The notes under the pieces were generated by a model, which saw only the letters and a list, made by a program, of their open reading frames with translations, ran no database searches and was not told where the DNA came from. Both the position numbers and the translations under genes were made by a program. A stretch of 64,000 nucleotides of DNA from Candidatus Omnitrophota bacterium (lineage in GTDB: Bacteria; Omnitrophota; Gorgyraeia; Gygaellales; Profunditerraquicolaceae), in assembly GCA_041651115.1 (NCBI GenBank), contig JBAZJY010000005.1, forward strand, positions 6,405-70,404, in the 5' to 3' direction. Shown one piece after another: positions 1,554 through 64,000 of this stretch (within the stretch, counting starts at the first letter, position 1; each line of letters opens with the position of its first letter).

Positions 1554-2477
1554 ATGCGGAAAAAACTGCCTTTAATAATAGGTATAGTTTTGGCTTTAGT
1601 AGCCGCGTATCTGATAAAGGTTTATACTGACCAGCAGCGCCAGCTTATTATTGAGGACGCAAGAAAAAAGATAGAGAAGATAAGGACAGAACAGGTGCCG
1701 ATACTTATAGCGGCAAAGGACATCCCTAAAGGCGCGGTCATTGATAAAGAAAGCGTGGGCGTTGCCATTGCGCCTATACAGCATGTACAGCCCCAGGCGG
1801 CTACGTCATTGGACAGGGTTGCCGGTATGATCGCGGTTGTCCCTCTGTCAAAAGGCGAGCAGATCACCTTGAATAAATTAATGTCGTCCAAAGAAGCTGT
1901 GGGCACCGGCTCTCTGGCAATGACCACTCCTATAGGTAAAAGGGCGGTCACTATATCCGTAGATAATATTTCCGCAGTCGGAGGCATGATCTTACCGGGT
2001 GATTATATTGATGTATCGGTGATGATCAGCGTGCCGGTTACAAACCCGGACGGCAAACAGGTTTCGCAGCAAGCAGTTGTGCCTTTGTTTCAGAACATCC
2101 TCGTGCTTGCCGTAGGCCAGGAATTGGCTGCAATGCCTGAAGTGGCGGCAGAAGGCCGTTATGCCAAGAAAGGCAGCAAGCGGGAATTTTCTCCGGCAAT
2201 CACTTTGGCGCTTAGCCCCCAGGAAGCAAATGTCCTCGCTTTTGTCCAGGAGCAGGGAAAGATCCGCCTGTCCCTGCGTTCGCCTTCCGATGCCAAGATC
2301 GAATCAGTGCAACCGGCAAGCTGGGATAGCTTATTCCAGTATCTTATGCCGAAAGAAGAGTTGGAAGCGCAGGCAAGGCAGCGGCAGAAAAAACCCGAGG
2401 AGCCTGCCCCGGAACCGGAGTCATACGTGGAAGTATATAGAGGCTTAAATAAAGAAAAAGTTCCCCTGTTCAAGTGA
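1554..2477 (+). CDS. cpaB: Flp pilus assembly protein CpaB/RcpC
   Basis: N-terminal TM anchor (LPLIIGIVLALVAAYLI), an SAF-like domain (IAAKDIPKGAVIDKESV) and an RcpC-like region (NILVLAVGQ). First gene of a co-oriented Tad cluster. Confidence 0.7.
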   Translation: MRKKLPLIIGIVLALVAAYLIKVYTDQQRQLIIEDARKKIEKIRTEQVPILIAAKDIPKGAVIDKESVGVAIAPIQHVQPQAATSLDRVAGMIAVVPLSKGEQITLNKLMSSKEAVGTGSLAMTTPIGKRAVTISVDNISAVGGMILPGDYIDVSVMISVPVTNPDGKQVSQQAVVPLFQNILVLAVGQELAAMPEVAAEGRYAKKGSKREFSPAITLALSPQEANVLAFVQEQGKIRLSLRSPSDAKIESVQPASWDSLFQYLMPKEELEAQARQRQKKPEEPAPEPESYVEVYRGLNKEKVPLFK

Positions 2478-2487
2478 GGCCGATAAA

Positions 2488-4101
2488 ATGAGAAAGTCTT
2501 TCCTGTCAGTTATTTTGGTGCTTGCGGCAATAACGATGTTCCCTCTTCAGCAGTATGCTTCCGACAGCATAGACGAAGAAATAAAATTATATATGGGTGA
2601 ATTAAAAGTCATCCCGGTCAACGGTATTGCCCGCATTGCCATCGGTAATCCCGCAGTAGCCGACGTAGTTAACGTCGCTAAAACCGAAATAACCATTAGC
2701 CCCAAAGCCCCGGGAACAACCACTTTAGTTTACTGGGACCTTTACGGCGAGCAGTCGTATAAATTAAAAGTTTTTGCGGAAGATATCACAGAGGCAAAAC
2801 GCCGGGTGGATAATCTTTTATCAAAACTTGACCTGCCCGGAGTTTACGCCCAGGCAGAAGAAGACGAGGGAAAAGTATTATTGCTTGGCACGGTAAAGGA
2901 GCCCCAGGACCGCGAAAAGATCGCATTGGCATTAGGAACCTTAAAGGACAAGACAGTTGATCTTATTACCGTAAAGGAAGAAGAAACCGCAGTTGAGATA
3001 GACGTGCAGGTGTTAGAGTTGGATAAAGACGCTACCAAGACATTAGGCTTTACTAATCCTCTGCAGGGCACGACCAGCATTACCGAAGTCGGTTCAGATA
3101 GCCTGACTTCAGTTTGGTGGACCAGGATTTTCCGGGTGGCAAACGTTAAAAGAGATACGGCATTTAACTGGACCATTACGATGCTGGAGCAGGAAGGCAA
3201 AGCGCGCATACTTTCCCGTCCGCGGCTTGCCTGCCAGAGCGGTAAGGAAGCGGAATTGTCCATCGGCGGTGAAAAGCCGGTATTTACTACCGACGTTGCT
3301 TCCGCAGGCGGAGAAGGCACCAGCGTTGACTATAAAGAATTCGGGATCAAGCTAAAGATTAAGCCTACGGTAACCACGGATAACCGTATCAAAGTAGCGT
3401 TAAACGTGGAGATCAGCGAAGTCGGGGTAGCGGATACGATCGGCGCTGCTAACGCGCCCACGGCCAAGGCGTATCCCCTGACCAAGCGCACAGTATCTAC
3501 CGAGCTTTTCCTTGATGACGGCCAGACATTGGCAGTCGGAGGGTTGATCAAGCAAAAACAGGAAGAGAGCCTTACAAAAACCCCCTGGTTGGCAGACCTG
3601 CCGGTTGTGGGAGGGCTTTTCCGTAAAAGAAGCACGACAACAGGCGGCGGGTTCGGAGAAAAGGGCAATACCGAATTATTCATTACCCTTACGCCTAAGA
3701 TTGTCGGCAGGCAAATTGACGCTGCTTCCGGCCAAACAGAAAAAAGTGCGGCAGGTAAAAGCAGTATAACTTCTCCGGCGGCAGAATCTCTCATGGGTGA
3801 GAATGTGCCCGCCGAAATGAAAAGCTATGTCCGCATTATTCAGAAGCGCATCCTTGATAATATAAGCTATCCGGTTTCGGCAAAAGAAGCAGGTTTCCAG
3901 GGGACGGTAAAATTAAGCTTGCATTTGTCTTACCTTGGCCAGCTCATTGATGCTACGGTCAAACAGTCTTCGGGATACAAGATCCTCGACGACAATGCCG
4001 TTACCACGAGCCGCCAGTTGATTTCTTATCCGCCGTTTCCTCCCTCAATAGATAAGAAAGACCTGTGGATAGATATCCCGATACTATACCGCTTGGATTA
4101 A
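2488..4101 (+). CDS. cpaC: Tad secretin CpaC/RcpA with an extra C-terminal TonB_C-like domain
   Basis: Signal peptide. CpaC N-terminal domain (IPVNGIARIAIGNPAVADVVNV...TTLVYWD). Secretin domain (RPRLACQSGKEAELSIGGEKPV...LAVGGLIKQKQEE...TPWLADLPVVGGLFR...ELFITLTPKIV). The last ~90 aa (YPVSAKEAGFQGTVKLSLHLSYLGQLIDATVKQSSGYKILDDNAVTTSRQLISYPPFPP) fit the TonB C-terminal fold. Confidence 0.8.
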   Translation: MRKSFLSVILVLAAITMFPLQQYASDSIDEEIKLYMGELKVIPVNGIARIAIGNPAVADVVNVAKTEITISPKAPGTTTLVYWDLYGEQSYKLKVFAEDITEAKRRVDNLLSKLDLPGVYAQAEEDEGKVLLLGTVKEPQDREKIALALGTLKDKTVDLITVKEEETAVEIDVQVLELDKDATKTLGFTNPLQGTTSITEVGSDSLTSVWWTRIFRVANVKRDTAFNWTITMLEQEGKARILSRPRLACQSGKEAELSIGGEKPVFTTDVASAGGEGTSVDYKEFGIKLKIKPTVTTDNRIKVALNVEISEVGVADTIGAANAPTAKAYPLTKRTVSTELFLDDGQTLAVGGLIKQKQEESLTKTPWLADLPVVGGLFRKRSTTTGGGFGEKGNTELFITLTPKIVGRQIDAASGQTEKSAAGKSSITSPAAESLMGENVPAEMKSYVRIIQKRILDNISYPVSAKEAGFQGTVKLSLHLSYLGQLIDATVKQSSGYKILDDNAVTTSRQLISYPPFPPSIDKKDLWIDIPILYRLD

Positions 4102-4110
4102 AAACCGTAA

Positions 4111-6264
4111 ATGGCTAAGACAATAGTAGTATTCAGCACAAAAGGCGGCGTGGGTAAAACCCTGGTCGCCTCCAACCTTGCCGTATCATTGGCCAAGGAC
4201 CAGAACCAGCGGGTCTGCCTCCTGGATTTTGACCTCCAGGCGATCGGCGACATGTCGCGGATGCTCGGGCTTAACCCCGAAAGGTCGCTGGTAGATATGC
4301 TGGAGCCTTTGAAACAGCAAGGCGCTGATTTTAAAAAAGACCAGTTTTTCAACCGCAATGCTTTTGGAGTTGACTTCTTACCCGCAGTTTTAAAACCCCA
4401 GCATATCCCCAGCCTTAACCCCGAAGGAATAAGAAATGCCTTCAGCCTGCTGGATAAAGAGTACGATTATATCATCGTCGACGGCGGTAAAAGTTTTAAC
4501 GACGCTTTTATGGCGGCATTAAATCAAGCCAATCTTATCCTGTTGGTAATTACTCCGGATATTCTTTCCATATATCAAACTAAACTGGCATTTGATACGC
4601 TGCAGTTCCTGCATTTCCCGCTTTCAATGCTGCGCATCGTTTTAAACCGCGCTGAATCGCTGGCAAGCATCAGCTGGCAGGAGATCAGGGCAAATCTGCC
4701 CGTAGATATCGTTTCGCTTATTCCGTCGGAAGGCAGGGTCGTCGGCCAGGCAGTGAACCGCGGTATACCGGTTGTCGTTGATAATCCCCGCTCAAAGATT
4801 GGCCTGGCAATAAAGAAACTCGCCTTTGATGTTACTAAAGACAGCGGCCTGTTTATTGAGCGCCGTAATTTAGACGAGCTGCAGCTTAAGGAAGAGCCGT
4901 TTGAGAAGTCGGGCGACTTTTGGAAAAAACAGGGCCTCTCGGAAACAATCGCCGAATCCGCATATTCCGAAGAAAGGGATGAAATACAACTTTTAAAACG
5001 CAGGATCCATAACCGCTTGATTGATGAGCTTGATTTGAAACGGCTGGATCTGAAGGTCTTTTCCGACGCTAAGAAAAACAGAGAGATAAATGATAAAGCC
5101 GAGATCCTGGTTGCTAATCTTTTGGCGGATGAAGCCGGCAGCCTGATCTCTTCCCAGGAAGAGCGTAAGAAGATCGTCAAGGAAATCTTAAACGAAGCCT
5201 TGAGGCTCGGGCCCCTGGAAGATTTACTTGCTGACCCGGATGTCACCGACATCATGGTCAACAATAAGGATGAAGTTTACGTAGAACGCAGGGGAAGGAT
5301 TGAGCGGACTGATAAAAAATTCGTTTCCAATATTCAGGTAAAGACGGTTATTGAGCGTATTATTGCGCCCATCGGCAGGCGTATTGATGAAAGCGTTCCA
5401 ATGGTAGATGCCCGCCTGCCTGACGGTTCGCGCGTAAACGCGATCATCCCGCCGCTTTCGCTGACCGGCCCGGCGCTGACAATCAGAAAATTCCGCAAGG
5501 AAAGGTTTAAGATAGACGAGTTGATCGGGATGAACAGTTTAAATTCGGCAATGTCTATATTCTTACAGGCATGCGTAGCCTCGCGCAAAAATATCATTGT
5601 TTCAGGCGGCACAGGTTCCGGTAAAACTACGGTATTGAATGTCTTGTCCGGTTTTATTCCCGACCGGGAGCGCATTATCACCATTGAAGACGCGGCAGAA
5701 TTAAGGCTGCACCAGACCCATTGGATAAGGCTGGAATCACGGCCTCCGAATATTGAAGGAAAGGGCGCGGTGACCATCCGCGATCTTTTCCGTAATACCC
5801 TGCGTATGCGGCCGGACCGCATCATCATCGGCGAATGCCGCGGCATTGAGACATTAGACATGCTCCAGGCAATGAACACCGGCCACGACGGGTCTATGAC
5901 CACTATCCATGCCAATTCCACGTTTGATGCATTAACCAGGCTTGATTCAATGATCCTGATGTCCGGCGTGGACCTGCCGGTCAGGTCAATACGCGAGATG
6001 ATCGCTTCAGCGATTGATATGATTGTCCACACTGCGCGGCTTGCCGACGGCACGCGTAAGATTACCCAAGTAAGCGAGATCTCCGGTATGAAGGAAGACG
6101 GGCACATTGGGCTGCAGGATGTTTTTATGTTCAAGCAGACCGGCATTGACAAGCAACAGATGGCAATAGGTAATTTCTATGCTACCGGATATGTGCCATC
6201 GTTTATTGAAGAAATGAAAGTAAGAGGCATTGCCCTTCCCGAAGATCTCTTCAAAACCCCGTGA
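4111..6264 (+). CDS. fused CpaE/TadZ-like ParA-family ATPase (N-terminal) and CpaF/TadA secretion ATPase (C-terminal)
   Basis: N-terminal deviant Walker A KGGVGKT (MinD/ParA family, as in CpaE/TadZ). C-terminal half has Walker A GGTGSGKTT, RIITIEDAAEL, GHDGSMTTIHANS and a T2SSE-family His box. One continuous 717-aa ORF. Confidence 0.8.
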   Translation: MAKTIVVFSTKGGVGKTLVASNLAVSLAKDQNQRVCLLDFDLQAIGDMSRMLGLNPERSLVDMLEPLKQQGADFKKDQFFNRNAFGVDFLPAVLKPQHIPSLNPEGIRNAFSLLDKEYDYIIVDGGKSFNDAFMAALNQANLILLVITPDILSIYQTKLAFDTLQFLHFPLSMLRIVLNRAESLASISWQEIRANLPVDIVSLIPSEGRVVGQAVNRGIPVVVDNPRSKIGLAIKKLAFDVTKDSGLFIERRNLDELQLKEEPFEKSGDFWKKQGLSETIAESAYSEERDEIQLLKRRIHNRLIDELDLKRLDLKVFSDAKKNREINDKAEILVANLLADEAGSLISSQEERKKIVKEILNEALRLGPLEDLLADPDVTDIMVNNKDEVYVERRGRIERTDKKFVSNIQVKTVIERIIAPIGRRIDESVPMVDARLPDGSRVNAIIPPLSLTGPALTIRKFRKERFKIDELIGMNSLNSAMSIFLQACVASRKNIIVSGGTGSGKTTVLNVLSGFIPDRERIITIEDAAELRLHQTHWIRLESRPPNIEGKGAVTIRDLFRNTLRMRPDRIIIGECRGIETLDMLQAMNTGHDGSMTTIHANSTFDALTRLDSMILMSGVDLPVRSIREMIASAIDMIVHTARLADGTRKITQVSEISGMKEDGHIGLQDVFMFKQTGIDKQQMAIGNFYATGYVPSFIEEMKVRGIALPEDLFKTP

Positions 6265-6608
6265 AAATAATAAACATCACAAAAGGCACTGTCGTAGCAG
6301 ATAATGCCGTTATCGCTTCTACTTTTTTTAAGCGTCTCAAAGGCCTGCTTGGTAGAAAAAGCATTGAGAAGGGCGAAGCGCTTATAATACAATCCTGCAA
6401 TTCTATCCACAGTTTTTTTATGCGTTTTCCCATTGATGTCCTATTTGTTAATAAGACCGATAAAGTAGTTGCTGTCACAAATTCCTTTGCTCCTTTTCGT
6501 ATCAGCAAGATCTATTTTACCGCTTCTTATGTTATTGAGCTTCCCGCCGGCTCTATAAAAGCTACTTCTACCTCTGTGGGAGATAAGATAGAAATAACTG
6601 CTGGTTAA
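6261..6608 (+). CDS. DUF192 (COG1430) family protein
   Basis: 115 aa. GTG start overlaps the upstream TGA (GTGA), suggesting translational coupling. LKGLLGRK...GEALII..CNSIHSFFMRFPIDVLFV...VIELPAG matches the DUF192 pattern. Confidence 0.55.
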   Translation: MKIINITKGTVVADNAVIASTFFKRLKGLLGRKSIEKGEALIIQSCNSIHSFFMRFPIDVLFVNKTDKVVAVTNSFAPFRISKIYFTASYVIELPAGSIKATSTSVGDKIEITAG

Positions 6609-6725
6609 GGTATTGGGTTAGGGTTAAGATGCCAGTATGGTAGGTGGGTTAAGGTTAAGGATTAATGGCCTAACCTCAACCTCTAAACCATACCGGCTTC
6701 TTGACCGTAACCTTAACCATAGCCT
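6603..6725. repeat. ~120-bp palindromic hairpin repeat (GGTTAAGG / CCGGTATGGTA family), copy 1
   Basis: Left arm ggttaaggtattgggttagggttaag..ccagtatggta..ggttaaggttaagg, and right arm cctaacc..aaaccataccggcttc..ccttaaccatagcc is its reverse complement. The same architecture recurs at 19377, 20634/21199, 21364 and 29199. Confidence 0.8.
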
Positions 6726-6730
6726 ATCTA

Positions 6731-6795
6731 ATGTCCATTGACAATCCCTATCTTTAATGATATTCTGGCTTTATAAATGTCCAATCTGAGGAGAG
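6731..6795 (+). promoter_or_regulatory. pair of AATGTCCA(A/T)T boxes overlapping a candidate sigma70-like promoter and RBS for the 6797 gene
   Basis: Boxes at 6731-6741 (aatgtccattg) and 6775-6787 (aaatgtccaatct). TTGACA (6738-6743), 17 nt, then TATTCT. GAGGAG RBS 6788-6793 before the ATG at 6797. The same box recurs at 21313, 21343, 29131 and 29161. Confidence 0.4.
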
Positions 6796-6796
6796 C

Positions 6797-8323
6797 ATGG
6801 GGGTTGTCCATAAATTAACACCGGAAGTCAGGCAATTTGTCCTTGAAAAAAAGCAGCTTAACCCGGAATTAAGCTGCCGGAAGATCAGTTCATTGGTTCT
6901 GGACAAATTCCAGTTCAAGCTCTCCAAGTCCAGCGCCAATGCCATATTTAAGGAAGCAGGTTTAAGCTTAGCCGTAGGCAGGCGGCGCAGCCGCGCTCCG
7001 CTGCCTAAATCTAAACCGTTTATTTATTCCGGCCTTGCGCTTTTTAAAGCCGCGGACAGTATGTTCGGCGGCTCCTTTCATATCAGCGAAGCAATAAAGC
7101 GCGTTGCCGGCGACCCGGATGCCGCGTTAAAAACTGAAAGCCTGCTTGAAGCGCATATCCTGAAGTCCGCGTTAGGCCTGCCGGTGAGTTGGCCTCAATC
7201 TTTTGCCGGAAGTCTTAACCGCAATTCCGGCCTGCTTTCAGAGATCAGCCAGGTATTAAAAAATATCAGCCAGGTCGCCGGCGGTGTTAAAGCCGTTACC
7301 ACCGACGGAAAAGAATTCTATCTTGACGGCCAACTGCACACGCTTTGGCAATCCTCTCAAATCCCGTCTGCGCTTTCCTGCCCTGCCCATAATTTAGAGC
7401 AGCGTATCCTGCAGCAGGCCAAAGGAAAACTGCCGTTCGTACTTTTTTTTGCCCCGGGATTTCGTGAGCCAACGCAGATGTTTTTTGATTTTATCCGCGG
7501 CTTCTCCGATACAGAAAAAAAATTTTCCCACTTCGTTGCGTATAATTATAACCTTGAAGAGCTCAAAAGTATAAAGCTTCCGGAGCCTGCAGGAATAATT
7601 TTCGGCATCTGGCCGTGGCAATTCAAGGAATATATAAAAATAAACGCTGTCTCCGGAATTAAAAAATTTGAATTTGCTCCGCTTAAAAAAGAATTTTTTA
7701 TCTCCGCGGTGGATGTTGAGCTTAAGCAGCCAAAACTGGATGCGACTTTGCATTTTAACGGCTGCCTGCTGAAAGCAAACGCGGAAGAAAAAACCGGTTT
7801 AATTGTTTTAGGCAGCCCGCAGCCCGCAGCTAGTGATCCTGCGGCCCTGGCTAAGGCTTACCTGGAGCATTGGCCTGACCCAACAGGCTCTTTTCAAAGC
7901 TTTAGCCGCAAGGTTGAGGCATCAACCAAGCAAAAAGATACGCAAGACAACGGGGAAGAGACCACATTGTCATTGCGAAGTGCCGCAGGCGCTGAAGCAA
8001 TCCCAATCCCCGGCCTCGATTCCTTACTTGATAACTATCTGAAAACATTAGAGTTATATGTTAGAGATAACCTGCTGCCGGGTAAATATTCAACTGAAAG
8101 CGCGACAATAATAAAAGAGCGTTTTTACCTGTTTGAGTGCGGCCTGACAAAAACAAAAGATAATCTATTTATAAATTTTAAACTTTCCCATGAAGCCGAT
8201 TCTATAAAAGACATTACCTATATCTGCAATCAGGTTAATGAAAAAATAATAATTATGCCTGACAGCCGCAGGCTTTGGCTGGCAGTTTGCTTAGAAAACG
8301 CTTTCCCGGAGGCAGGCAAATGA
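6797..8323 (+). CDS. hypothetical protein with N-terminal helix-turn-helix-like domain
   Basis: 508 aa. The first ~60 aa (LTPEVRQFVLEKKQLNPELSCRKISSLVLDKFQFKLSKSSANAIFKEAGL) look like a homeodomain / transposase-N-type HTH. The rest has no recognised domain. Sits directly downstream of the box pair and hairpin repeat. Confidence 0.5.
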   Translation: MGVVHKLTPEVRQFVLEKKQLNPELSCRKISSLVLDKFQFKLSKSSANAIFKEAGLSLAVGRRRSRAPLPKSKPFIYSGLALFKAADSMFGGSFHISEAIKRVAGDPDAALKTESLLEAHILKSALGLPVSWPQSFAGSLNRNSGLLSEISQVLKNISQVAGGVKAVTTDGKEFYLDGQLHTLWQSSQIPSALSCPAHNLEQRILQQAKGKLPFVLFFAPGFREPTQMFFDFIRGFSDTEKKFSHFVAYNYNLEELKSIKLPEPAGIIFGIWPWQFKEYIKINAVSGIKKFEFAPLKKEFFISAVDVELKQPKLDATLHFNGCLLKANAEEKTGLIVLGSPQPAASDPAALAKAYLEHWPDPTGSFQSFSRKVEASTKQKDTQDNGEETTLSLRSAAGAEAIPIPGLDSLLDNYLKTLELYVRDNLLPGKYSTESATIIKERFYLFECGLTKTKDNLFINFKLSHEADSIKDITYICNQVNEKIIIMPDSRRLWLAVCLENAFPEAGK

Positions 8324-8468
8324 GATTGACGCTTGTTTGTGCGGATGTTATAGTTAGATTGCGATTATAAATATATATATAAGGTAGGATGGTCGGGGGG
8401 GCCGGCCAAGCAAAGCCACGGATGATGTATACTAATTGTCTTTTTATGATTTTGTGGCGTGAAAGCTT

Positions 8469-8500
8469 GCAGCCGGCAGTATTCTGCCGGCTTTTTATTT
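8469..8500 (+). terminator. Rho-independent terminator-like hairpin just upstream of the first pilin gene
   Basis: Perfect 9-bp stem agccggcag / ctgccggct with loop tatt, followed by TTTTTATTT. It lies 10 nt before the pilin RBS (gggag), so it could also act as a 5'-UTR attenuator. Confidence 0.6.
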
Positions 8501-8510
8501 GGGAGTAAAA

Positions 8511-8834
8511 ATGATTTTTAAAAAAGCATTAAGCCAGAGTACCATTGAATATGTGTTGCTGGTGGCAATCACTATAATCGCGCTGGTGGTAGGAGCGAAT
8601 TTTGTTGATCAGATCAAGGGCGGTGCGTTTCAGGCGCATTTTGATGCGGCAAAACCCTTTGTAGCCGGGGAAACAGTTATCTATACCGCGCAGCCTGAGG
8701 CTCCAAGTAACACAGGCAGTACGGGAAATGTTCCGGCGGGCTGTGAATCCTGCCCCAATGATTGCCAATTGTGGCGGACCCAGGTGGGGCCGGATATGCA
8801 GACTTATTGGCGGTGCCCGCCGAACAGAGGATGA
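8511..8834 (+). CDS. Flp-type pilin paralog P1 with a 4-Cys C-terminal extension
   Basis: GGGAG RBS. Class-III leader MIFKKALSQSTIEY followed by the hydrophobic helix VLLVAITIIALVVGA. C-terminus GCESCPNDC...WRCPP. Confidence 0.6.
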   Translation: MIFKKALSQSTIEYVLLVAITIIALVVGANFVDQIKGGAFQAHFDAAKPFVAGETVIYTAQPEAPSNTGSTGNVPAGCESCPNDCQLWRTQVGPDMQTYWRCPPNRG

Positions 8835-8835
8835 G

Positions 8836-9306
8836 ATGATAGATCTGTTAAAGACGACAAGAAAACTAGCCCAGAGCCTTATTGAATACGTGATGATCTT
8901 TGCGATCGTCGCTGCGGCGCTGGGGGTAACTTATAAATATGTTTACCGTTCAATGAACGCGCGTTTGGATGATATACAGGATGTGGTAACTCCTGACCGG
9001 CCTGACGGCGGCAATTGGGATCTGCCCGACGTTGATCCGCCGGATGATCCTGAGCCGCCGAATACGGATTTAGAGAGTTGCCTTGCCGGTAATGACGCGG
9101 AATGTAACCAGCGTTTACAAGAAGGCATAGAATATTGTTGCGTGGAGTGTTGCGGCGCTGTTATGGCTGCTTGTAATGCTAATCCAAGCGACAGCGGTAT
9201 TTGTAACCCGGGTGCTCCCAGTAATGGTTGCCGCTATCCAGAGATTACCAATTGTCAGCAAAGCGGTGAGGCCCAGAGGGATATTTGCTGCGAGAATAAA
9301 TATTAA
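8836..9306 (+). CDS. Flp-type pilin paralog P2 with a 12-Cys C-terminal domain
   Basis: ATG 1 nt after the P1 stop. Leader MIDLLKTTRKLAQSLIEY plus VMIFAIVAAALGV. Pro/Asp-rich linker, then 12 Cys including CC pairs (YCCVECCG, DICCENKY). Confidence 0.6.
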   Translation: MIDLLKTTRKLAQSLIEYVMIFAIVAAALGVTYKYVYRSMNARLDDIQDVVTPDRPDGGNWDLPDVDPPDDPEPPNTDLESCLAGNDAECNQRLQEGIEYCCVECCGAVMAACNANPSDSGICNPGAPSNGCRYPEITNCQQSGEAQRDICCENKY

Positions 9307-9322
9307 CGCGGGTAAAGAAAAG

Positions 9323-9841
9323 ATGAAGAGACCTTACAGATTAGCCCAGAGTCTTATTGAATACGTGATGATCTTTGTGATCGTCGCTGCGGCAGTAGGG
9401 GTAACTTATAAATATATTTATCGCGCAATAAACGCGCGCTTAAAAAACACGCAGGATGAGCTGAACTATAGCCGTTCTGTTGAGGGAGTGGAAGCAGATG
9501 AGTATAATGACGGCAGCGGAGATAAAATTGAGACTTCTGTCGGGAATACTCGTCCGGGCTGTGAGTCTTGCCCGGATAATTGTCGGTCGCGGGTAGTAGC
9601 AACAGGCCGCGGCGGACCTAGTGCGGGTAATTGGGGGGTTGAGTGGTATTGCGCACCGGCTACAGGCGGAAACACAGGTGGAGATACAGGCGGAAACACA
9701 GGTGGAGATACAGGCGGAAACACAGGTGGAGATACCGGCGGTGACACAGGTGGGAATACCGGTGGTTGTCCTGCCGGCTCGCATCGGGTTTGTCATCCAT
9801 GCGGCCGCGGGGATACTTGTTGTAATTGCGTAGGCAATTAA
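9323..9841 (+). CDS. Flp-type pilin paralog P3 with Gly-rich repeats and a 10-Cys C-terminal domain
   Basis: Leader MKRPYRLAQSLIEY plus VMIFVIVAAAVGV. GCESCPDNC motif shared with P1. (GGNTGGDTGG)n repeat encoded by a 30-nt DNA tandem repeat. C-terminal CPAGSHRVCHPCGRGDTCCNC. Confidence 0.6.
   Translation: MKRPYRLAQSLIEYVMIFVIVAAAVGVTYKYIYRAINARLKNTQDELNYSRSVEGVEADEYNDGSGDKIETSVGNTRPGCESCPDNCRSRVVATGRGGPSAGNWGVEWYCAPATGGNTGGDTGGNTGGDTGGNTGGDTGGDTGGNTGGCPAGSHRVCHPCGRGDTCCNCVGN
9655..9765 (+). repeat. 30-nt tandem repeat (about 3.5 copies) inside pilin P3, encoding (GGNTGGDTGG)n
   Basis: acaggcggaaacacaggtggagat acaggcggaaacacaggtggagat acaggcggaaacacaggtggagataccggcggtgacacaggtgggaat. Confidence 0.8.
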
Positions 9842-9897
9842 TGTTGAGCGATCTTAATATGAACAAAAAACAGCAAAACGAAGGAGGTGAAAGAGAA

Positions 9898-10095
9898 ATG
9901 AGAAAGATGAGAAGGGAAGGACAGAGTATTCTTGAATACACCCTGCTTTTGGGTGCGATAATTGCAGTAATCGTAGCGGTTTTATTAGGTGGCCAAAGCA
10001 GCATGAAAGGTAAGGTAGAGGATACGTACGATGCGTTTGGTAATGCAATAAGCAATACGGCAAACGATGCGGATATCGGCGTGCTTACTCCGTAA
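9898..10095 (+). CDS. canonical short Flp pilin P4 (66 aa)
   Basis: GGAGGTG RBS. MRKMRREGQSILEY with the G-XXXX-EY Flp prepilin motif, then LLLGAIIAVIVAVLLGG. Typical Flp size. Confidence 0.75.
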   Translation: MRKMRREGQSILEYTLLLGAIIAVIVAVLLGGQSSMKGKVEDTYDAFGNAISNTANDADIGVLTP

Positions 10096-10114
10096 CGGAT
10101 AAGGAGGTAGTAAA

Positions 10115-10507
10115 ATGTTTCTAAGGAAGAAAGGACAATCTACTGCCGAATACGCGATTGTCATCGGCTTAGTGATTGCCGTGGCAGCAGGCATACTTCA
10201 GGTTGCCTTAAAAGGCGGCATCCGGCAGAAGAATAAACAGGCTACGGATTATTTGGTTGGTGAGAATGACGGCACAGACGGCGGTGCAGGCGGCTACGCG
10301 GCAATGAACGCCCAGATCGCATTAGGTGATCCTGCTGAACTCTACACCCAGGAAATGCGCGATACTACGGTTTTAGGCGGAGATGCCAACTACGTAGATG
10401 AAAGCGTAATGCTTAAAGGCGGAGCAGAGGAAAGACGGCAGAAGCAGGTTACCGAGACAACAGCTGTCAGCGTAGAGGCTATTGAAGGCGTAACAACGGG
10501 GAATTAA
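10115..10507 (+). CDS. Flp-type pilin paralog P5
   Basis: AAGGAGGT RBS. MFLRKKGQSTAEY plus AIVIGLVIAVAAGILQ. Confidence 0.7.
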   Translation: MFLRKKGQSTAEYAIVIGLVIAVAAGILQVALKGGIRQKNKQATDYLVGENDGTDGGAGGYAAMNAQIALGDPAELYTQEMRDTTVLGGDANYVDESVMLKGGAEERRQKQVTETTAVSVEAIEGVTTGN

Positions 10508-10548
10508 ACCGTACCGTAGATCAAAAAGTCATAGGGAGGTGAGCAATA

Positions 10549-11004
10549 ATGTTAAGGCGCAATAGTGGTCAATCAATAGTGGAGTACGCTATTCTTTTAG
10601 GCGTAATCATCGCGGCCTTATTGATCATGCAGGCATTCATCAAAAGAGGCTATCAGGGCGGCCTGAAAGATTCCGCGGACAAGATGGGCGAGCAGTTTTC
10701 CGCAGGAAATACCACAATCAAACAGGCAAGGACAATGGCAGAGGATCAAACTATCAGGGAAGCAGTGGCAACTGATGATGAAATAGCGCTGTTTACCGGC
10801 GACGTAGGCATAGCAGACGTACCGCGTACGCTTGACGCAGGCGCTTATTCTTATAGCGAGCGCAGCCCGGTGGAAATAGCTTCTACCACGCACGTAGTAA
10901 CTGACAGCGCTGATCAGGAAGCAACAAGAAAAGACGCATACGCTAATGTGCAAGTGACCAACTTTCAGTTTGTCAGTCCTGATAGTGATTTTGAAAGGCC
11001 GTAA
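10549..11004 (+). CDS. Flp-type pilin paralog P6
   Basis: GGGAGGTG RBS. MLRRNSGQSIVEY plus AILLGVIIAALLIMQ. Confidence 0.7.
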   Translation: MLRRNSGQSIVEYAILLGVIIAALLIMQAFIKRGYQGGLKDSADKMGEQFSAGNTTIKQARTMAEDQTIREAVATDDEIALFTGDVGIADVPRTLDAGAYSYSERSPVEIASTTHVVTDSADQEATRKDAYANVQVTNFQFVSPDSDFERP

Positions 11005-11017
11005 TAAGGTGGAAAAA

Positions 11018-11209
11018 ATGAAAAGACCCCTTAAGAGAGGACAGAGTATTCTTGAATACGCCCTGCTTTTGGGCGCGATAATCGCAGTGATCGTCGCAGC
11101 TTTACTGGGCAGAGGCGGTATCCAGAGTAAGGTGAGGAATAGTTATGATACTTTCGGAGATGCGATTGAGAGCACGACAACTGATCTAACAAGCAGTGTA
11201 TTTAGATAA
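11018..11209 (+). CDS. canonical short Flp pilin P7 (paralog of P4)
   Basis: AAGGTGG RBS. MKRPLKRGQSILEY plus ALLLGAIIAVIVAALLG. 64 aa. Confidence 0.75.
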   Translation: MKRPLKRGQSILEYALLLGAIIAVIVAALLGRGGIQSKVRNSYDTFGDAIESTTTDLTSSVFR

Positions 11210-11221
11210 GGAGGTAGTAAA

Positions 11222-11581: not shown

Positions 11582-11603
11582 AAAATTAGGGAGGTGAGCA
11601 ATA

Positions 11604-12059: not shown

Positions 12060-12082
12060 GCAGCTAAAAACGGGACAGTGCA

Positions 12083-12764: not shown

Positions 12765-12771
12765 CCATAAA

Positions 12772-53500: not shown

Positions 53501-56500
53501 CCTAGTGCCATGAAATACAGGGTTCAGCGCTTCTTTTCGGGATTGTCACACTTAGACGAACTGACCGCAGCCGCAATGCTGGTTCTTGTGCCTGCCATAA
53601 AGCTTGTGGATGGACTTTGCAGCCTGGGAGAAAAGATATTCTTTGCCATAGCCAACGCCTTTTACAAACCCAGCGCCCTGAAATACAAAATCCAGAATTT
53701 CTTCTCTAGCTTTAGCGGTATGGATGAGCTTACCGCAGCCGCAATGTTGGTCCTTGTGCCGTTTATATCATTATTAGATAAAATCGCAAATGCGGGCGAA
53801 AGGATATTAGATGTAATTGATATCCGCGGTAAAGTTAATGCATTTAAACTTAACACAGAACGTTTTCTTTTAGGCTTAGCAAATACAGATGTATTAACTG
53901 CGGTTGGAATGATTATCTTAGCGGTTCCTATGTATTTGATGAATAAACTATGGCTAAAGAGAGTTAGGTTGGCTGTTTTTGGTCTGACTTTTATGACTCT
54001 TGCTTCTTCATTCACGATCCCTTCAGAGGCAGCAATACTTGATAATAAAGTTGCGAAATTGAATACAATAAAGGCAAAAGCTTTTGAAGACGGTAAACTT
54101 GATTATAAAGAAGTTATTAAAATAGATGAAGCTTACGAAAATGTATTAGAAAAAGAAATAGCCGCGTTAGGATGGGAAGCAGGAGCCAGCGCGCGTAAAG
54201 AAAAGATAAAAGAGATTACCGGACAAATTAAGAATGAAAAAGACGCAAATAAGCTTACGGAACTTAAGAAAGAATTGCTCCAGCTTTATAAATTGCAGCT
54301 AATATATTATCAGGATAAGGTGGAATTGGAATCACGGAAGATGGCCGAGCTTAGCGAAAAGAACAAAAAGAAGCATAGCGACCGGATTGAAGAGAAAATC
54401 AATGAGAAGATAGACAATATTGCTGATGCGACAAAAGAGCTTAAGGATACCTATAATGAACAGTGGCCGATGTTAAAAGAAGTCATCGCTGAAGTAGAGC
54501 CTAATGTTAAAACAGCCGAAGATATAGCATTTTTACAGGATTTATATAGGATGGCCGTAGATAACCGCAGCTTTGTCTTAAAAAGCCTGGATGAATCGAG
54601 CAAAGAACAAGCCATAGTAAAACAAGAATTAGATTATTATTCCAGCAAGATCCCGGAATATAAAGAGAGCAGAGAAATTGCGGATAGCCAGGAAAAGTCC
54701 GAAGCTACAAATACACCTAATATGGCCGATACCCAAATAGCGGGAACAGAGAATAAGGCTTATAAGCCGGAAGGTAAAATTGAAGAAATTAATAAGGTTA
54801 TTGAAGCAATAAATGATAAAACATTAGAAATCGTAGCGGATATGGCCAAGAAAGAAACGGCTTTTGAAGGGTTGGAATATTATTGGCAGATTATTAAGGC
54901 GGCTGAAGAAAATAATGAAAATGGCAGATTTGATACCCAGATAGCCGAAATCAGGAAACTGTATGATCTTGCCCGCATTTTAGAAGGATATAACCGTAAG
55001 GATGCTGATATAAGCTATTCTACCCGTATCAATCTTATTGATTTTATGTTCCTTAACCGCGCAGCCGGCACTGAAGACACCTATTTGGATATGTTAAAGG
55101 GTACAGATACACTCTTGGCAGATGATATTAATGAAGCGGTTTTGGCAGTAGAGCTTAATGCAGTGCCCTTACTTAAAGATATACGGCTGTATGAAAACGC
55201 AACTGTTACGATTAACAAACAGATAAAAACTTCCAATGATGCACTAGCTAAGGCAGATGCTGATGCGAAAGATATTTATCAGAGCCTTATTGAAGAAAAT
55301 ACCAAGCTCGTAAATATATTTACCGATTTGACTAAAGTTTTAAGAGAAAGATTAAATCTTAGCGACAAGTATAAAACGATTCAAACCGGCAGCAAGGGAG
55401 AAAGGATTGTTGTTATTGCATTGCCCCCGGAAGAAGAGGATAAGCTTAATGATGCGGAAAATAAGTTTAAGCAAGAAATCAATGCCATAAGCGCAAAAGG
55501 TAAAGTTTTAGGAGAAGCTGCCAAATTATATCAGGAGCGTAAAGGTGAGAGAGACACGGATAAGATCAAGCTGATAGATTTGAAGATCAGTTTAGTTAGA
55601 AAACAATTGGCAGGCGCAGTTTTACTTGATAAAAACATCCAGGCTGCTTTACAGGAAGTCAACAATACGCCCAACAGAGAAAGGCCGGCGTTAATTGAAA
55701 AGAAGATTTCAGGGCTTAAGGGGCTGGATTTGGGGTATAAGAATGATTTTAGCGAGATGCTGAATATCAGCCGCCAGATCAGTGAGCAGGAGAAGAAAAT
55801 AGCTGATAAGCAGGGCTTAGAGGAAAAATTAGCTCAAGCCGGCGCAAATAATAAGGAGTCCGAAATTAACGCGGAAGCTGCCGATGAATCGACCAAGAAA
55901 TCAGCCAAGGCAGTAGTAAAACTTTTCTTGGAAAAATTAGGCGTTCCGGAATTAAACGATACAATTGATGCTAATGCTTGGGATAATCTTAACACGCTTG
56001 AACAGTGGCTCGCGGAAAACGTCTTTATCGGCACATTAAAGGATGCGGATGCTAACGAGCTCTTGGGAATTGCCCTTTCGGCAATATACCGGACAACAAT
56101 ATCTCTTAAAGAGATCAGGGGCCAGCCAATGGGCGCTATAGAGATAAAGTATGAGTATCGTCGGGAAGAGATAGCCGGCAAAAGCAGCACCGATAACAAT
56201 ATGTCTATTTTCTACTTTGTCGGCGGCATACGCGTGAGCGAAAAATCACTTTCTTTTGTCGGTGGCGTGAATTTGGGCGGGGAGCTGGATAATATTGGCC
56301 GTTCCATTGCGGAAATGTTCAAAAAGACAATTACTCGCAAAGACCTGATTTCTTTACAGGAAGAGATCGGCAATAAGATCACCAGCAAGATTGAAGAAAT
56401 AGAAAAAGCAAGAATTGATATCATTGCTGCGGCGCGGAAGGTGCAGTTGATTGACGCAAGAGAAAAGAACGGAGAGATTCTTCCTTACAGCCGCCAGGAA

Positions 56501-64000: not shown

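Follow-up and report, generated by a model that had tools for sequence, protein, structure and literature searches.

Gene content and the Tad-like cluster

The window, meaning the whole 64,000-nt stretch of DNA analysed here, contains a Tad-like machine, a set of prepilin genes, two giant ORFs, and hairpins accompanied by a 12-nt box; the four linked parts on a single strand that a preliminary description had claimed were thus all found. In the ORF list of the window, the long ORFs from 600 to 64000 lie on the plus strand throughout, with a single 136-aa gene (20692-21102) as the exception, and coordinates below refer to the plus strand unless a strand is given. The window covers most of its contig. 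A Candidatus Omnitrophota MAG encodes proteins identical to the secretin and to giant1, the smaller of the two giant proteins (giant1 is NCBI WC532_08835), and a search for related loci returned 80, nearly all from Omnitrophota. These are abundant, uncultured, ultra-small bacteria that are thought to live on other cells, and their giant genes rank among the longest known.

Module 1 (338-6608) encodes envelope parts of the system. Ahead of the locus proper is a gene for an 80-aa small hydrophobic protein (338-580), for which no Pfam family scored above its cutoff; a gene of about 80 aa occupies the same place, before the rotamase gene, in two distant genomes (L083 and L084). It is followed by a PpiC/SurA-like peptidyl-prolyl isomerase (600-1553; Rotamase_2, PF13145, 3.9e-18), found in the same position in both of those genomes, by RcpC/CpaB (1554-2477; PF16976, 4.9e-25; SAF, 5.9e-08), and by a CpaC/RcpA-type secretin (2488-4101; PF00263, 2.2e-39; PF13629, 1e-12) with a C-terminal TonB_C domain (PF03544, 6.7e-14, residues 458-536). 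The next gene (4111-6264) encodes a 717-aa protein in which a ParA/MinD-like NTPase resembling TadZ/CpaE (PF13614/PF01656/PF10609 at residues 3-184) is fused to a T2SSE ATPase resembling TadA/CpaF (PF00437, 2.5e-64, residues 366-645), and this is the fused motor of the preliminary description. The last gene of the module encodes a DUF192 protein (6261-6608; PF02643, 1.4e-20) that is kept in L084 and in a third locus, L048.

The secretin-TonB_C fusion is likewise real, but its designation as atypical does not hold, as the same three domains are present in all 120 homologues among the matches listed as well as in L083 and L084, making the fusion the norm in this lineage. The ParA-T2SSE fusion recurs in L083 and L084 (720-723 aa), and the entire 5' half of the locus, including both fusions, is syntenic in these two genomes. 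Both fusions are therefore lineage-wide.

Module 2 (6797-19373) opens with the gene for an HTH-like protein (Orf508, described below), and the genes after it encode prepilins and pseudopilins of the Flp type, 13 in all, together with a TadG-like protein and the two platform proteins TadB and TadC. The count of 13 comes from a motif scan of the window for ORFs in which a G-X4-[E/D]-Y prepilin motif is accompanied by a hydrophobic helix. Ten of these are small Flp-type genes (pil1-pil10, 8499-12409) with G-X4-EY motifs, none of which matches a Pfam pilin family above cutoff; within this array a three-gene block has been tandemly duplicated (10098-10719 and 11205-11774, 94-95% identical). Downstream are a 279-aa candidate TadE-like pseudopilin (12745-13584; prepilin motif GQAAVELAIFGSLVV), with homologues in most related loci, and a 514-aa prepilin-like protein (13538-15082) that contains 40 cysteines (8.1%) and also has homologues in related loci. 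The TadE model itself (PF07811) scored at best 17 bits among the ORFs of the window, under its cutoff of 22.9. An eleventh small prepilin gene, pil11 (17281-17601; motif SQTILDYVILLLVV), has homologues immediately upstream of TadB in many loci. The extreme pilin repertoire that had been proposed is borne out by these 13 genes, but the disulfide-rich heads attributed to it are not general: cysteine-rich heads are found in only four of the 13, and seven have no cysteine at all.

The remaining genes of module 2 encode a 442-aa TadG-like protein (15100-16428; PF13400, 2.1e-07, 31.6 bits against a cutoff of 22.3), a conserved 307-aa protein without a Pfam match (16361-17284) that has weak homologues (21-25%) in the same position in several loci, and two T2SSF platform proteins, TadB-like (17638-18495; PF00482, 8e-20) and TadC-like (18489-19373; PF00482, 7.2e-16), the latter ORF possibly starting already at 18396. 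Gene order within the Tad part differs among loci, with TadB and TadC placed before or after the pilins. Neither an A24 prepilin peptidase (TadV/CpaA) nor a pilotin was found, either within the window or over the preceding 6.4 kb, although the peptidase may be encoded elsewhere in the genome. With no prepilin peptidase in view, it would go too far to describe pilus assembly as complete, and the earlier term "complete" for the Tad machine is not confirmed.

The giant genes and the RelA_SpoT domain

Beyond module 2 come two more transcription units, one for each giant gene. The first giant gene is preceded by two paralogous lipoprotein-like genes (19488-20601; 178 and 176 aa) with a PsbP-like C-terminus near cutoff (PF01789, 23.0 and 22.2 bits against 23.5), and homologues of this pair lie ahead of giant1-like genes in four related loci. 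Giant1 (21562-29109), a protein of 2,515 aa, has at its N-terminus a hydrophobic segment that resembles a signal sequence; Pfam detected no domain in any of its 2,515 residues. Weak relatives (27-41%) are found in the same position in seven of the 80 loci. Giant1 would be a secreted or membrane-associated protein.

The second giant gene (29528-64000) is open to the end of the window and encodes more than 11,490 aa, so that both of the mega-proteins described earlier are present. Over its N-terminal ~270 residues, giant2 shares 53-67% identity with 43 fragments of giant proteins from Omnitrophota. A membrane anchor at residues ~45-68 lies N-terminal to a C39 peptidase-like domain (29945-30400; PF03412, 4.4e-08, 33.5 bits against a cutoff of 22), in which the cysteine and histidines (C115, H198 and H203) are invariant in the alignment; the protease-like start ascribed to this protein is thus a Peptidase_C39 domain. 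A hydropathy scan detected a cluster of about 13 hydrophobic transmembrane-like segments (45215-50374; residues 5230-6949), a second hydrophobic cluster at residues 7840-8133, and at least 20 hydrophobic segments overall, in agreement with the internal membrane anchors reported previously. Part of the second cluster (53363-53930; residues 7950-8133) consists of three to four tandem 168-nt (56-aa) repeats that encode hydrophobic segments and fall into two repeat families (D8 and D11). The cell-wall-binding-like loop of the preliminary description is not confirmed: the LysM-like stretch HIVQKGETIWGIT ... IYPGDTIVF, located right after a transmembrane segment (47321-47500), is a candidate that stays below threshold, at 14.6 bits against a cutoff of 20.9 with only 12 profile positions matched. 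A rough hydropathy scan, read with the positive-inside rule, suggests that giant2 is a polytopic membrane protein with an anchor and a C39 cysteine-peptidase-like domain at its start. Its C-terminal half, with a possible SecA-like domain and possible toxin ends, is outside the view, as are any pilZ genes downstream, because the ORF runs past both the window and the end of the 71,867-bp contig.

Between the two hydrophobic clusters, at residues ~7228-7356, giant2 contains a RelA_SpoT (RSH synthetase) domain (51209-51595; PF04607, 3.8e-16, 59.8 bits against a cutoff of 27). Four synthetase motifs are intact (GRRKDFVS, DLFALRIV, GGYQALH and EVQIRT), which we take to be characteristic of active RSH synthetases. 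The NCBIfam model TIGR00691 (spoT_relA) also matches, at 9.8e-20 and 70 bits against a full-length cutoff of 499. PDB matches at E up to 1 comprise 13 RelA/Rel/SpoT-type chains and one lipase (E 0.99), and include no chain named toxSAS, CapRel, FaRel or Tas1. In a representative library, the four strongest matches are proteins of 709-6,022 aa, three of them from Omnitrophota, and most of the weaker matches are proteins of ~700 aa in which the N-terminal half is aligned. The synthetase is preceded by a degenerate HD-like region (50555-50947; HD_4, PF13328, E 9e-4, 19.4 bits against a cutoff of 27.2), in which the position of the HD dipeptide is occupied by MF. In the 160 residues that follow the synthetase, Pfam matched neither TGS nor ACT at E-values up to 5. 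A K/R-rich loop comes after the last transmembrane segment ahead of this module, suggesting that the module lies on the cytoplasmic side.

It was as a toxSAS-type nucleotidyltransferase that this domain had been introduced, and because of that name the locus was read as a device for contact-dependent toxin delivery, with pili that bind a target cell and a giant protein that carries the toxin domain into it. Secreted RSH toxins do exist elsewhere (Tas1, toxSAS), the giant2 module belongs with them to the RelA_SpoT synthetase fold family (PF04607), and its catalytic motifs are intact; a predatory or parasitic lifestyle has, moreover, been proposed for Omnitrophota (Seymour 2023, PMC10066038). 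However, the toxSAS identity was rejected, since the domain is internal to an ORF of more than 11,490 aa, follows a cluster of membrane helices, has an HD-like region before it, and finds its best matches among long RelA/Rel enzymes. Unlike toxSAS and Tas1, the module is not small and stand-alone, it is extended at its N-terminus in the manner of long RSH proteins, and no antitoxin gene adjoins it, as no separate gene could adjoin an internal domain; it sits mid-protein within a 34-kb ORF rather than as C-terminal cargo, and no small immunity gene is nearby. Polymorphic or contact-dependent toxin systems such as CDI, Rhs and MafB have a toxin domain at the C-terminus and an immunity gene beside it; the C-terminus of giant2 is beyond the window, and giant1 has no recognisable domain. 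Together with the K/R-rich loop and the absence of toxSAS-named chains from the PDB matches, these features make toxin delivery very improbable, and a tempting reading of the RelA_SpoT domain is thereby corrected.

The supposed toxin domain instead looks like an ordinary RelA-type alarmone synthetase. It has intact synthetase motifs and a preceding HD-like region in common with the long RSH proteins (RelA, Rel and SpoT), which are also its best matches in the PDB, NCBIfam and the representative library. It differs from them in being embedded in a membrane protein of more than 11,490 aa, in the degeneration of the HD-like region, and in having no Pfam-detected TGS or ACT domain. The module would probably face the cytoplasm of the producer itself, as a nucleotide-signalling output and not as a delivered toxin. 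In this it would resemble the GGDEF domains that have been reported for other giants of Omnitrophota. Both giants would stay in the producer's own membrane as a surface coat, an adhesin or an enzyme scaffold.

Boxes, promoters and hairpins at the module junctions

A 12-nt box, AATGTCCAWWCT, has six matches in the window against 1.0 expected, located solely at three module junctions. It is common to the pilin module and to both giant genes, and the shared operator elements mentioned in the preliminary description can be recognised in it. Among 69 related loci, 61 have the box in the interval from -1000 to -100 relative to the giant gene. Box matches upstream of giants in these loci are strongly strand-biased (200 on the plus strand and 22 on the minus strand), and the spacings between them cluster at 20-22, 29-31 and 40-41 nt, a phasing of ~10 bp.

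Within the window, a promoter scan placed the promoter of module 2 and its two boxes at 6728-6787 (TTGACA-17-TATTCT with TG), with a box-like AATGTCCATTGA that overlaps the -35 element and a box AATGTCCAATCT that lies 10 nt before the start codon. This box/promoter/box layout is found at the promoter of the orf508 family in four genomes (the window, L048, L083 and L084). The gene that it precedes, Orf508 (6797-8323), encodes a conserved 508-aa protein with a weak N-terminal HTH signal and is a candidate for the box-binding regulator. In Orf508 and two homologues, HTH_32/HTH_33 remain under the Pfam cutoff (E 5e-4 to 1e-2). Homologues in the same position were found in 16 loci; a single-sequence AF2 model of Orf508 was unusable (pLDDT 35.7).

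Upstream of giant1 there are three boxes (21284-21354), one on the minus strand at 21284 and two on the plus strand at 21314 and 21343, 29 nt apart, followed by a sigma-70-like extended -10 promoter (21492-21519; TTGATA-16-TATACT with TG). Giant2 is preceded by two boxes AATGTCCAATCT (29131-29172) that are 30 nt apart, with the same position and phasing in related loci, and by a second promoter of the same type (29392-29419; TTGACA-16-TATATT with TG, 11/12), which is homologous to CTTGACAGCG...TGTTATACT in related loci. The boxes of the giant genes lie 230-260 nt ahead of the predicted -35 elements with a long hairpin in between, which is not the usual layout for a simple sigma-70 activator. 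A box-associated sigma-70-like extended -10 promoter precedes module 2 as well as each of the giant genes, so the three are probably switched together. One DNA-binding factor, most simply the HTH-like Orf508, would probably be responsible, as far as can be judged from the sequence.

Most relatives have an additional layer of control. In about 70 of the 80 related loci, a riboswitch of the c-di-GMP-I family with good covariation (Rfam clan CL00126; best-scoring model RF03167, c-di-GMP-I-GGC) lies between the conserved promoter and the giant gene. The window differs from these relatives: it has no c-di-GMP-I aptamer, the best match with filters off having an E-value of 1.8, and the leader of giant2 from promoter to start codon is only ~110 nt long. 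It is possible, as a tentative and rather doubtful extension, that these elements form a phylum-wide regulon, in which a transposase-like HTH family, that of Orf508, binds phased AATGTCCAWWCT boxes before the pilin module and the giants, mostly layered with a c-di-GMP-family riboswitch that is fed by a conserved neighbouring FIST / histidine kinase / GGDEF module. In such a scheme the riboswitch would have been lost here, and the RelA-like synthetase in the giant would link the state of the surface protein to nucleotide signalling.

The module borders are also marked by long hairpins, of which the window holds three full copies of ~115 nt each (MFE -51 to -62 kcal/mol). The first, which is REP/REPIN-like, is at 6603-6725 (MFE -61.6 kcal/mol, z -6.6), the second at 19371-19490 (-58.6 kcal/mol, z -8.5), and the third at 29199-29320 (-51 kcal/mol, z -6.8). 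A further copy is split into a left arm (20640-20697) and two right arms (21205-21274 and 21383-21452), comprising repeat families D2, D6, I3 and I4. This split hairpin (20640-21452) encloses the one minus-strand gene of the locus (20692-21102), which encodes a four-helix-bundle protein (TIGR02436, 2.3e-15) with a 58%-identical homologue upstream of a giant1-like gene in another locus. The three full copies and the split one account for the shared repeat elements that had been noted at module borders.

These hairpins look like genome-specific REP-like elements. The third copy has an 86%-identical counterpart beside an unrelated gene on another contig, and in L083 and L084 the junction corresponding to the first copy is occupied by RAYT-like Y1_Tnp genes that are flanked by other hairpins. 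The Y1_Tnp-flanking hairpins of the relatives recur upstream of the giant gene. As in REP/REPIN systems with RAYT, the hairpins of the window are long, imperfect and intergenic, occur in several copies, and are found directly after stop codons. Unlike those systems, the window contains no RAYT gene, and the one hairpin that is split surrounds a four-helix-bundle gene and not a transposase.

Conservation of the linkage and comparison with known systems

Homologues of the C39-headed giant gene with at least 6 kb of upstream sequence were available in 47 related loci, and 41 of these have same-strand Tad-locus genes upstream. In three of the other six, a giant1-like gene displaces the Tad genes beyond the 10-kb range. 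The C39 ORF is open to the end of the locus in 42 of 46 loci (2,228-3,658 aa). The idea that homologues of the giants and the Tad locus never co-occur, which the preliminary description had itself named as its refutation, is therefore clearly contradicted, and the 41 linked loci provide an independent, quantified confirmation that C39-headed giants sit behind a Tad-like cluster. While gene identities, domain types, synteny and its conservation, and the conservation and phasing of the box were established directly, a functional coupling of pili and giants is something we infer from the synteny and the shared motifs.

The pilus and the giants could instead be neighbours that act independently, their adjacency stemming from shared ancestry in small genomes. 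Each unit does have a promoter-like site of its own, strong hairpins stand between the units, the position of TadB and TadC relative to the pilins varies, and six of the 47 loci have no Tad gene within range. However, the linkage is kept across species in which the N-termini of the giants are only 39-73% identical, and the same strand-specific box occurs at the promoter of the pilin module and at both giants. In Seymour 2023 (PMC10066038), which cites Kizina 2022, the Tad complex is described as expressed in co-culture, and peptides of the giant ORF as up 3-fold in attached V. archaeovorus cells. Independent action is thus quite unlikely, and the earlier assertion that these are not unrelated genes agrees with both the linkage and the common cis-box.

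An alternative form of coupling would make the Tad-like cluster a dedicated T2SS-like exporter of the giants, with a pseudopilus that pushes their extracellular parts through the secretin-TonB_C channel. The tight and conserved adjacency and the shared boxes would be expected of such a device, and its logic is matched by a secretin, a PPIase chaperone and many minor-pilin-like genes. No Tad system is known to export substrates of several thousand residues, and the parts found here are of the Tad/Flp type (RcpC, a CpaC-type N-domain, an NTPase resembling TadZ, two T2SSF proteins of one domain each, and G-X4-EY prepilins). With an anchor at its N-terminus and numerous transmembrane segments further in, giant2 would be inserted by Sec/YidC rather than passed through a secretin as a folded protein. 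West-Roberts 2023 (bioRxiv 10.1101/2023.11.21.568195) did describe the cluster as type II secretion-like and raised the export of the giants as a question, yet on balance a dedicated exporter appears unlikely.

The explanation that we favour, and consider moderately probable as a whole, is that of a conserved Omnitrophota Tad-like cluster with giant genes, co-switched through the boxes, whose giants remain in the membrane of the producer with a RelA-like module on the cytoplasmic side. The variable pili built by the Tad-like machine would then serve to attach the cell to its host or prey, and the machine may also help to export parts of the giants.

The locus is a further example of a known Omnitrophota arrangement, in which a Tad-type pilus/secretion cluster is followed by enormous membrane-protein genes. 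Section 11 of West-Roberts 2023 (10.1101/2023.11.21.568195) describes Omnitrophota giants that are preceded by a system of more than 10 subunits with gspD/E/F, rcpC and Rotamase_2, with many class III signal peptide genes and with N-terminal C39 domains on the giants. The same Tad/giant association is reported in Seymour 2023 (PMC10066038) and in a 2026 preprint (10.64898/2026.06.07.730766), and all three studies propose a role in predation or attachment. The arrangement is already published and therefore not new, contrary to what had been suggested for this locus. A search of the West-Roberts text returned none of the terms SpoT, ppGpp, alarmone, nucleotidyltransferase, promoter, intergenic or transcription, and no description of the conserved phased box, the candidate regulator or the riboswitch of the relatives was found in the literature examined. 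The newest detail is the conserved DNA box ahead of the pilin and giant genes, and these regulatory parts offer handles on when such enormous genes are switched on. The window does not reveal a new kind of system, but it sharpens a known one.

Tad/Flp systems generally have one to three prepilin genes. With the Tad/Flp (type IVc) systems of Aggregatibacter, Caulobacter (Cpa) and Pseudomonas, the window has in common a TadA/CpaF ATPase, a TadZ/CpaE-like NTPase, TadB, TadC, an RcpA/CpaC secretin with its N-domain, RcpC/CpaB, a TadG-like protein and G-X4-EY prepilins. It differs from them in the fusion of TadZ to TadA, in the TonB_C domain on the secretin, in its 13 prepilin-like genes, in having no visible TadV/CpaA peptidase or TadD pilotin, and in the giant genes that follow the cluster.

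The closest comparison is with the "Archaeovorin" loci of West-Roberts 2023, whose type example is that of Velamenicoccus archaeovorus LiM. Unlike these loci, the window has its Tad genes separated from the C39 gene by an additional 2,515-aa gene, a feature of only ~7 of the 80 related loci. The visible 11,490 residues of giant2 contain only C39 and RelA_SpoT among Pfam domains and none of the glycosyltransferase, methyltransferase, GH, HEAT, NUDIX and SecA DEAD domains of Archaeovorins, a difference that is not decisive for an ORF that continues past the window. The pilZ and carbohydrate import genes that lie downstream of the giants in the published loci would likewise fall beyond the window. 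Common to both are the phylum, Rotamase_2, rcpC, gspD/E/F-like genes and class III signal peptide genes, and a giant ORF that starts with a C39 domain near a signal or transmembrane segment and continues with many transmembrane segments.

Gene order and linkage

The genes of the Tad-like cluster and of the two giant proteins can be identified, their order is conserved in related genomes, and conserved cis-elements lie between them. Between position 600 and the end of the window, every long reading frame is on the plus strand except a 136-aa gene at 20692-21102. A tRNA-Glu gene (178-254) is the only match in an Rfam search of the window, and is followed, on the plus strand, by the gene for an 80-aa hydrophobic protein. 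Next come the genes for a PpiC/SurA-like rotamase, for RcpC/CpaB and for a CpaC-type secretin that carries TonB_C at its C-terminus, then those for a 717-aa protein in which a ParA/MinD-like NTPase is fused to a T2SSE ATPase, and for a DUF192 protein. The pilin module then begins with orf508 (6797-8323), whose 508-aa product matches no family above cutoff, and continues with ten small prepilin-like genes and three more, a TadG-like gene (PF13400) and, at its end, TadB and TadC, each a single-domain T2SSF protein. Two paralogous lipoprotein-like genes, with a PsbP-like end scoring near the cutoff, lie between TadC and giant1, a 2,515-aa reading frame (21562-29109). The last gene, giant2, starts at 29528 and is still open at 64000, with more than 11,490 aa.

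In the preliminary description, this machine was called complete, with an atypical secretin-TonB_C fusion and a fused motor. Both the secretin-TonB_C fusion and the ATPase fusion are real, but neither is special to this locus; of the 957 secretin homologues with E <1e-10, the 120 listed all have the same three domains, and two distant Omnitrophota genomes contain a 720-aa ParA-T2SSE fusion in an identical gene order. The word "complete" is too strong, as neither an A24 prepilin peptidase nor a pilotin is found in the window or in the 6.4 kb upstream, which were read from a second assembly of the same organism (L001). The C39 domain of giant2 was rejected as the missing prepilin peptidase, because the prepilins have a single glycine (K/R-G-Q-S) and not a double-glycine leader; C39 peptidases cut double-glycine leaders.

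The pilin repertoire is large, with 13 products that begin with G-X4-[E/D]-Y and a hydrophobic helix, the Flp prepilin signature. The disulfide-rich heads ascribed to it are limited to four of the 13 (with 4, 12, 10 and 40 cysteines), and seven contain no cysteine at all. One block of small prepilin genes, pil4-pil5-pil6 (9826-11004), is duplicated in tandem as pil7-pil8-pil9 (10970-12059), with 94-98% DNA identity in the 5' parts and only 56% overall between pil6 and pil9, which suggests a recent duplication with diverging C-terminal heads. In pil3, a 12-nt tandem repeat of about nine registers (9637-9780) encodes (GGNT/GGDT)n ahead of a cysteine-rich end, and could be a site of length variation. 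A DsbA/thioredoxin-like gene is located about 5.5 kb upstream of the cluster (L001 778-1554); a link to the cysteine-rich pilin-like proteins is only a thought. A T2SS-like export role for the cluster is a rival reading that is considered unlikely, and the preferred reading is that the Tad-like machine would use a variable repertoire of Flp-type pilins to assemble pili.

The linkage of these genes to the giant genes extends well beyond the window. Over its first ~270 aa, giant2 shares 53-67% identity with 43 fragmentary Omnitrophota proteins, and PF03412 is on record for 41 of them. An alignment of this N-terminal region (A1) led to 80 related loci in species-representative genomes, nearly all labelled Omnitrophota, which were searched by tblastn with the Tad-locus proteins of the window. 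In 47 loci, 6 kb or more of sequence is available upstream of the C39 gene, and 41 of these have Tad-locus genes (TadB, TadC, TadG-like, prepilins) there, always on the same strand. In three of the other six, a giant1-like gene is present and displaces the Tad genes past the 10-kb flank. Downstream sequence is sufficient in 46 loci, and in 42 of them the C39 reading frame is open to the end of the locus, over 2,228-3,658 aa. The proposal that homologues of the giant genes sit beside Tad loci is therefore borne out, and the opposite result, that the two never occur together, was not seen; as the loci were chosen by their C39 head, this applies to C39-headed giants only. Several contigs on which a C39 giant gene is found together with Tad genes have records that name "uncultured Planctomycetales", Ignavibacteriae, Margulisiibacteriota or Dehalococcoidales (L006, L008, L019, L023, L027, L028, L047 and others; P0031), which probably reflects binning or labelling errors and not spread beyond Omnitrophota.

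Boxes, hairpins and a riboswitch of related loci

The shared repeat and operator elements described earlier are two different things: a box that is conserved before the modules, and hairpins that are not specific to the locus. The box, a 12-nt motif (AATGTCCAWWCT), occurs six times in the window (1.0 expected), and each copy falls at one of three junctions, those ahead of orf508, giant1 and giant2. When one mismatch is allowed, 61 of the 69 related loci with enough upstream sequence have it at -1000 to -100 relative to the giant gene; half of the matches are between -600 and -400, and 200 are on the plus strand vs 22 on the minus strand. The distances between adjacent boxes in these loci fall mainly into three groups (20-22, 29-31 and 40-41 nt) that differ by about one helical turn. 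A further 35 one-mismatch matches at 0 to +1000 are inside the coding region of the C39 head, where they probably represent a conserved peptide (…EMSNQ…) and not a regulatory site. An ops-like antitermination site was considered on account of the strand-specificity, and was thought less likely given the phasing and the positions at the orf508 promoter; because of the 10-bp phasing and this placement, binding to double-stranded DNA is suggested.

By sequence reading and a promoter scan, a sigma-70-like extended -10 promoter was identified for each unit, at 6738-6766 (orf508), 21492-21519 (giant1) and 29392-29419 (giant2). All three are homologous to a conserved CTTGACAGCG...TGTTATACT element of the related loci. 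A mere conserved neighbourhood is a rival reading that is considered improbable, and the preferred reading is that the pili and the giant proteins would be switched on together. The orf508 promoter of the window has the same layout as that of three other genomes: one box is just upstream of the -35 or overlaps it, and another is between the -10 and the ribosome-binding site. HTH_32/HTH_33 matches at the N-termini of Orf508 and two homologues are consistent, all below cutoff, and an AlphaFold2 model made without an alignment (mean pLDDT 35.7) is moderately confident only at residues ~10-40, in a three-helix N-terminus. The simplest hypothesis is that Orf508 is a candidate autoregulated box-binding protein that would couple the pilin module to the giant genes. 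A simple activator model does not account well for the boxes before the giant genes, which are separated from the downstream -35 by 230-260 nt that include a hairpin.

Three 115-nt hairpins with GGTTAAGG-type arms directly follow the stop codons of DUF192, TadC and giant1, with folding energies of -51 to -62 kcal/mol and z-scores of -6.6 to -8.5. The fourth copy is divided into a left arm (20640-20697) and right arms (21205-21274 and 21383-21452), which enclose, in the "loop" of the palindrome, the minus-strand gene at 20692-21102. This gene encodes a four-helix-bundle protein of TIGR02436, the family to which 23S rRNA intervening-sequence proteins and DGR Avd proteins belong; a homologue with 58% identity is upstream of a giant1-like gene in another locus (L028). 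The hairpin sequence is absent from all 80 related loci. Other, genome-specific palindromes occupy the same positions in related genomes, and a copy with 86% identity is present on a 1.1-kb JGI metagenome contig (L085 34-161) that is otherwise dissimilar to the window. By eye, the reading frame 3' of that copy, which starts GKLGEFGLIDRF, looks thiL-like. Because the hairpins are absent from these loci and a copy adjoins an unrelated gene, a locus-specific regulatory module was rejected. They are best read as REP/REPIN-like elements, and are probably terminators or insulators as well. At the DUF192/orf508 junction, which in the window has a different hairpin and no transposase, the two distant genomes have genes for Y1 transposases (RAYT-like, IS200-like; L083 14183-14665, L084 14277-14759) bordered by GGGACACCC...GGGTGTCCC palindromes, and sequence beside the L083 transposase is repeated upstream of a giant gene on the same contig (L081 9429-9570).

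Shared upstream k-mers in the related loci revealed a c-di-GMP-I-family aptamer; of seven loci tested, six score 62.7-67.5 bits with RF03167 (the GGC variant; gathering score 59). These aptamers were used to build a covariance model, which matches 78 times across about 70 of the 80 loci, with 90.9% standard pairs in the paired cells and 13 pairs changed on both sides, values that none of 500 shuffles reach. The aptamer is in most cases downstream of the conserved promoter and upstream of the C39 start codon (for example L025 9668-9765, L024 9669-9769 and L017 9683-9782), and is followed by a terminator-like stem that overlaps its 3' strand; aptamers are also found before giant1-like genes (L068 2559-2645, L008 80-200). 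No aptamer was detected in the window, either by Rfam (E up to 1, 20600-29600) or by the covariance model (best E = 1.8, 1-31000, filters off), and it is also absent from L003, the closest relative of the window, and from L028, L030 and L048. Directly upstream of the cluster, a FIST / histidine kinase / response-regulator-GGDEF set is encoded on the opposite strand in this genome and in the two distant Omnitrophota (L001 2257-5934, L083 3298-6988, L084 1-3097), and its retention suggests a conserved second-messenger input to the locus. Together with the aptamer, it fits a second-messenger circuit in the relatives that has been partly lost in this lineage. To our knowledge, the ligand of the c-di-GMP-I-GGC variant is not settled.

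The giant proteins and the RelA-like module

The two mega-proteins described earlier are both present, and giant2 is a real coding sequence, because a stop-free run of 11,490 codons is impossible by chance. Both giant1 and the secretin have exact counterparts among the annotated proteins of a 71,867-bp contig from a "Candidatus Omnitrophota bacterium" MAG. In a word-index search, giant1 matched only itself, and weak relatives were found solely by tblastn in syntenic loci. When the giants were scanned against Pfam in 5,000-aa pieces, RelA_SpoT alone was detected; 1,000-aa pieces added C39 and a weak HD_4, with no other match above cutoff. The protease-like start of giant2 is confirmed as a membrane anchor followed by a C39 peptidase-like domain (PF03412, 33.5 bits vs a cutoff of 22), the cysteine and histidine of which are unchanged across 13 aligned relatives. 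Internal membrane anchors are likewise supported, with hydrophobic segments clustered at aa 5230-6950 and 7840-8133. The "cell-wall-binding-like loop" was not accepted as a LysM domain, as the LysM-like start immediately past one transmembrane segment falls short of the Pfam cutoff at 14.6 bits, with just 12 profile positions matched. At 53363-53930, three to four tandem 168-nt repeats encode 56-aa units, each with a hydrophobic segment (…ELTAAAMLVLVP…).

The RelA_SpoT domain is internal (aa ~7228-7356; 59.8 bits vs a cutoff of 27), and its GRRKDFVS, DLFALRIV, GGYQALH and EVQIRT motifs, which we take to be those of active RSH synthetases, are intact as read from the sequence. Directly 5' of it is an HD_4-like region (E 9e-4, below cutoff) with the HD dipeptide replaced; a TGS domain suspected 3' of it was dropped, as Pfam gave no match. 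The module matches the long-RSH NCBIfam family TIGR00691 (9.8e-20), and 13 of its 14 PDB sequence matches (E up to 1) are RelA/Rel/SpoT-type, with one lipase (E 0.99) and no chain named toxSAS, CapRel, FaRel or Tas1. HMMER against 1.84 billion representatives returned four strong matches of 709-6,022 aa, three annotated as Omnitrophota and the longest unnamed; the weaker matches are mostly ~700-aa proteins aligned along the HD and synthetase halves. A K/R-rich loop between the last transmembrane segment and the module suggests, by the positive-inside rule, that the module is cytoplasmic.

The domain had been assigned to the toxSAS type, an assignment that its internal position, the HD_4-like region, the long-RSH match and the names of the PDB chains do not support. 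Toxin delivery, the corresponding reading of a giant membrane protein with an intact synthetase, is thus very unlikely. The internal position, the HD_4-like region, the long-RSH matches and the K/R-rich loop therefore argue for a RelA-like module, apparently captured by a giant membrane protein.

Working model and published systems

In the proposed model, the giant proteins would be anchored in the membrane of the producer and exposed at its surface, and, with the pili, would serve in attachment to, and processing of, the surface of a host or prey cell. Like the box binder, the membrane topology and what the RelA-like module does, these attachment roles are proposed, in part from publications on V. 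archaeovorus. According to Kizina et al., as cited by Seymour et al. 2023 (PMC10066038), its Tad complex is expressed in co-culture and giant-ORF peptides are up 3-fold in attached cells.

The original observation is largely real and the linkage correct in outline, but the toxin gives way to a RelA-like domain and the arrangement is not new, having been published in 2023 by West-Roberts et al. and Seymour et al. and in a 2026 preprint. No paper joining the c-di-GMP-I-GGC riboswitch with Omnitrophica was found in a literature search. There is no mention of SpoT, ppGpp, alarmone, nucleotidyltransferase, promoter, intergenic or transcription in 10.1101/2023.11.21.568195, or of PF04607, ppGpp, promoter, cis-regulatory or intergenic in 10.64898/2026.06.07.730766. 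The phased box with its candidate regulator, the riboswitch in relatives with its loss here, and the RelA-like module inside a giant were not found in the literature consulted.

The published systems are otherwise close. West-Roberts et al. (10.1101/2023.11.21.568195) describe a giant-gene secretion cluster with gspD, gspE, gspF, rcpC, a Rotamase_2 PPIase and many small class III signal peptide genes, as well as N-terminal C39 domains on full-length giants. Tad complexes and giant ORFs occur throughout Velamenicoccia (Seymour et al. 2023, PMC10066038), and secretion or pilus genes flank 13 of the 14 giants that reach 80 kAA or more (10.64898/2026.06.07.730766). GGDEF domains occur in other Omnitrophota giants (West-Roberts et al., 10.1101/2023.11.21.568195), and the captured RelA-like module of giant2 is, by analogy with them, probably a signalling output.
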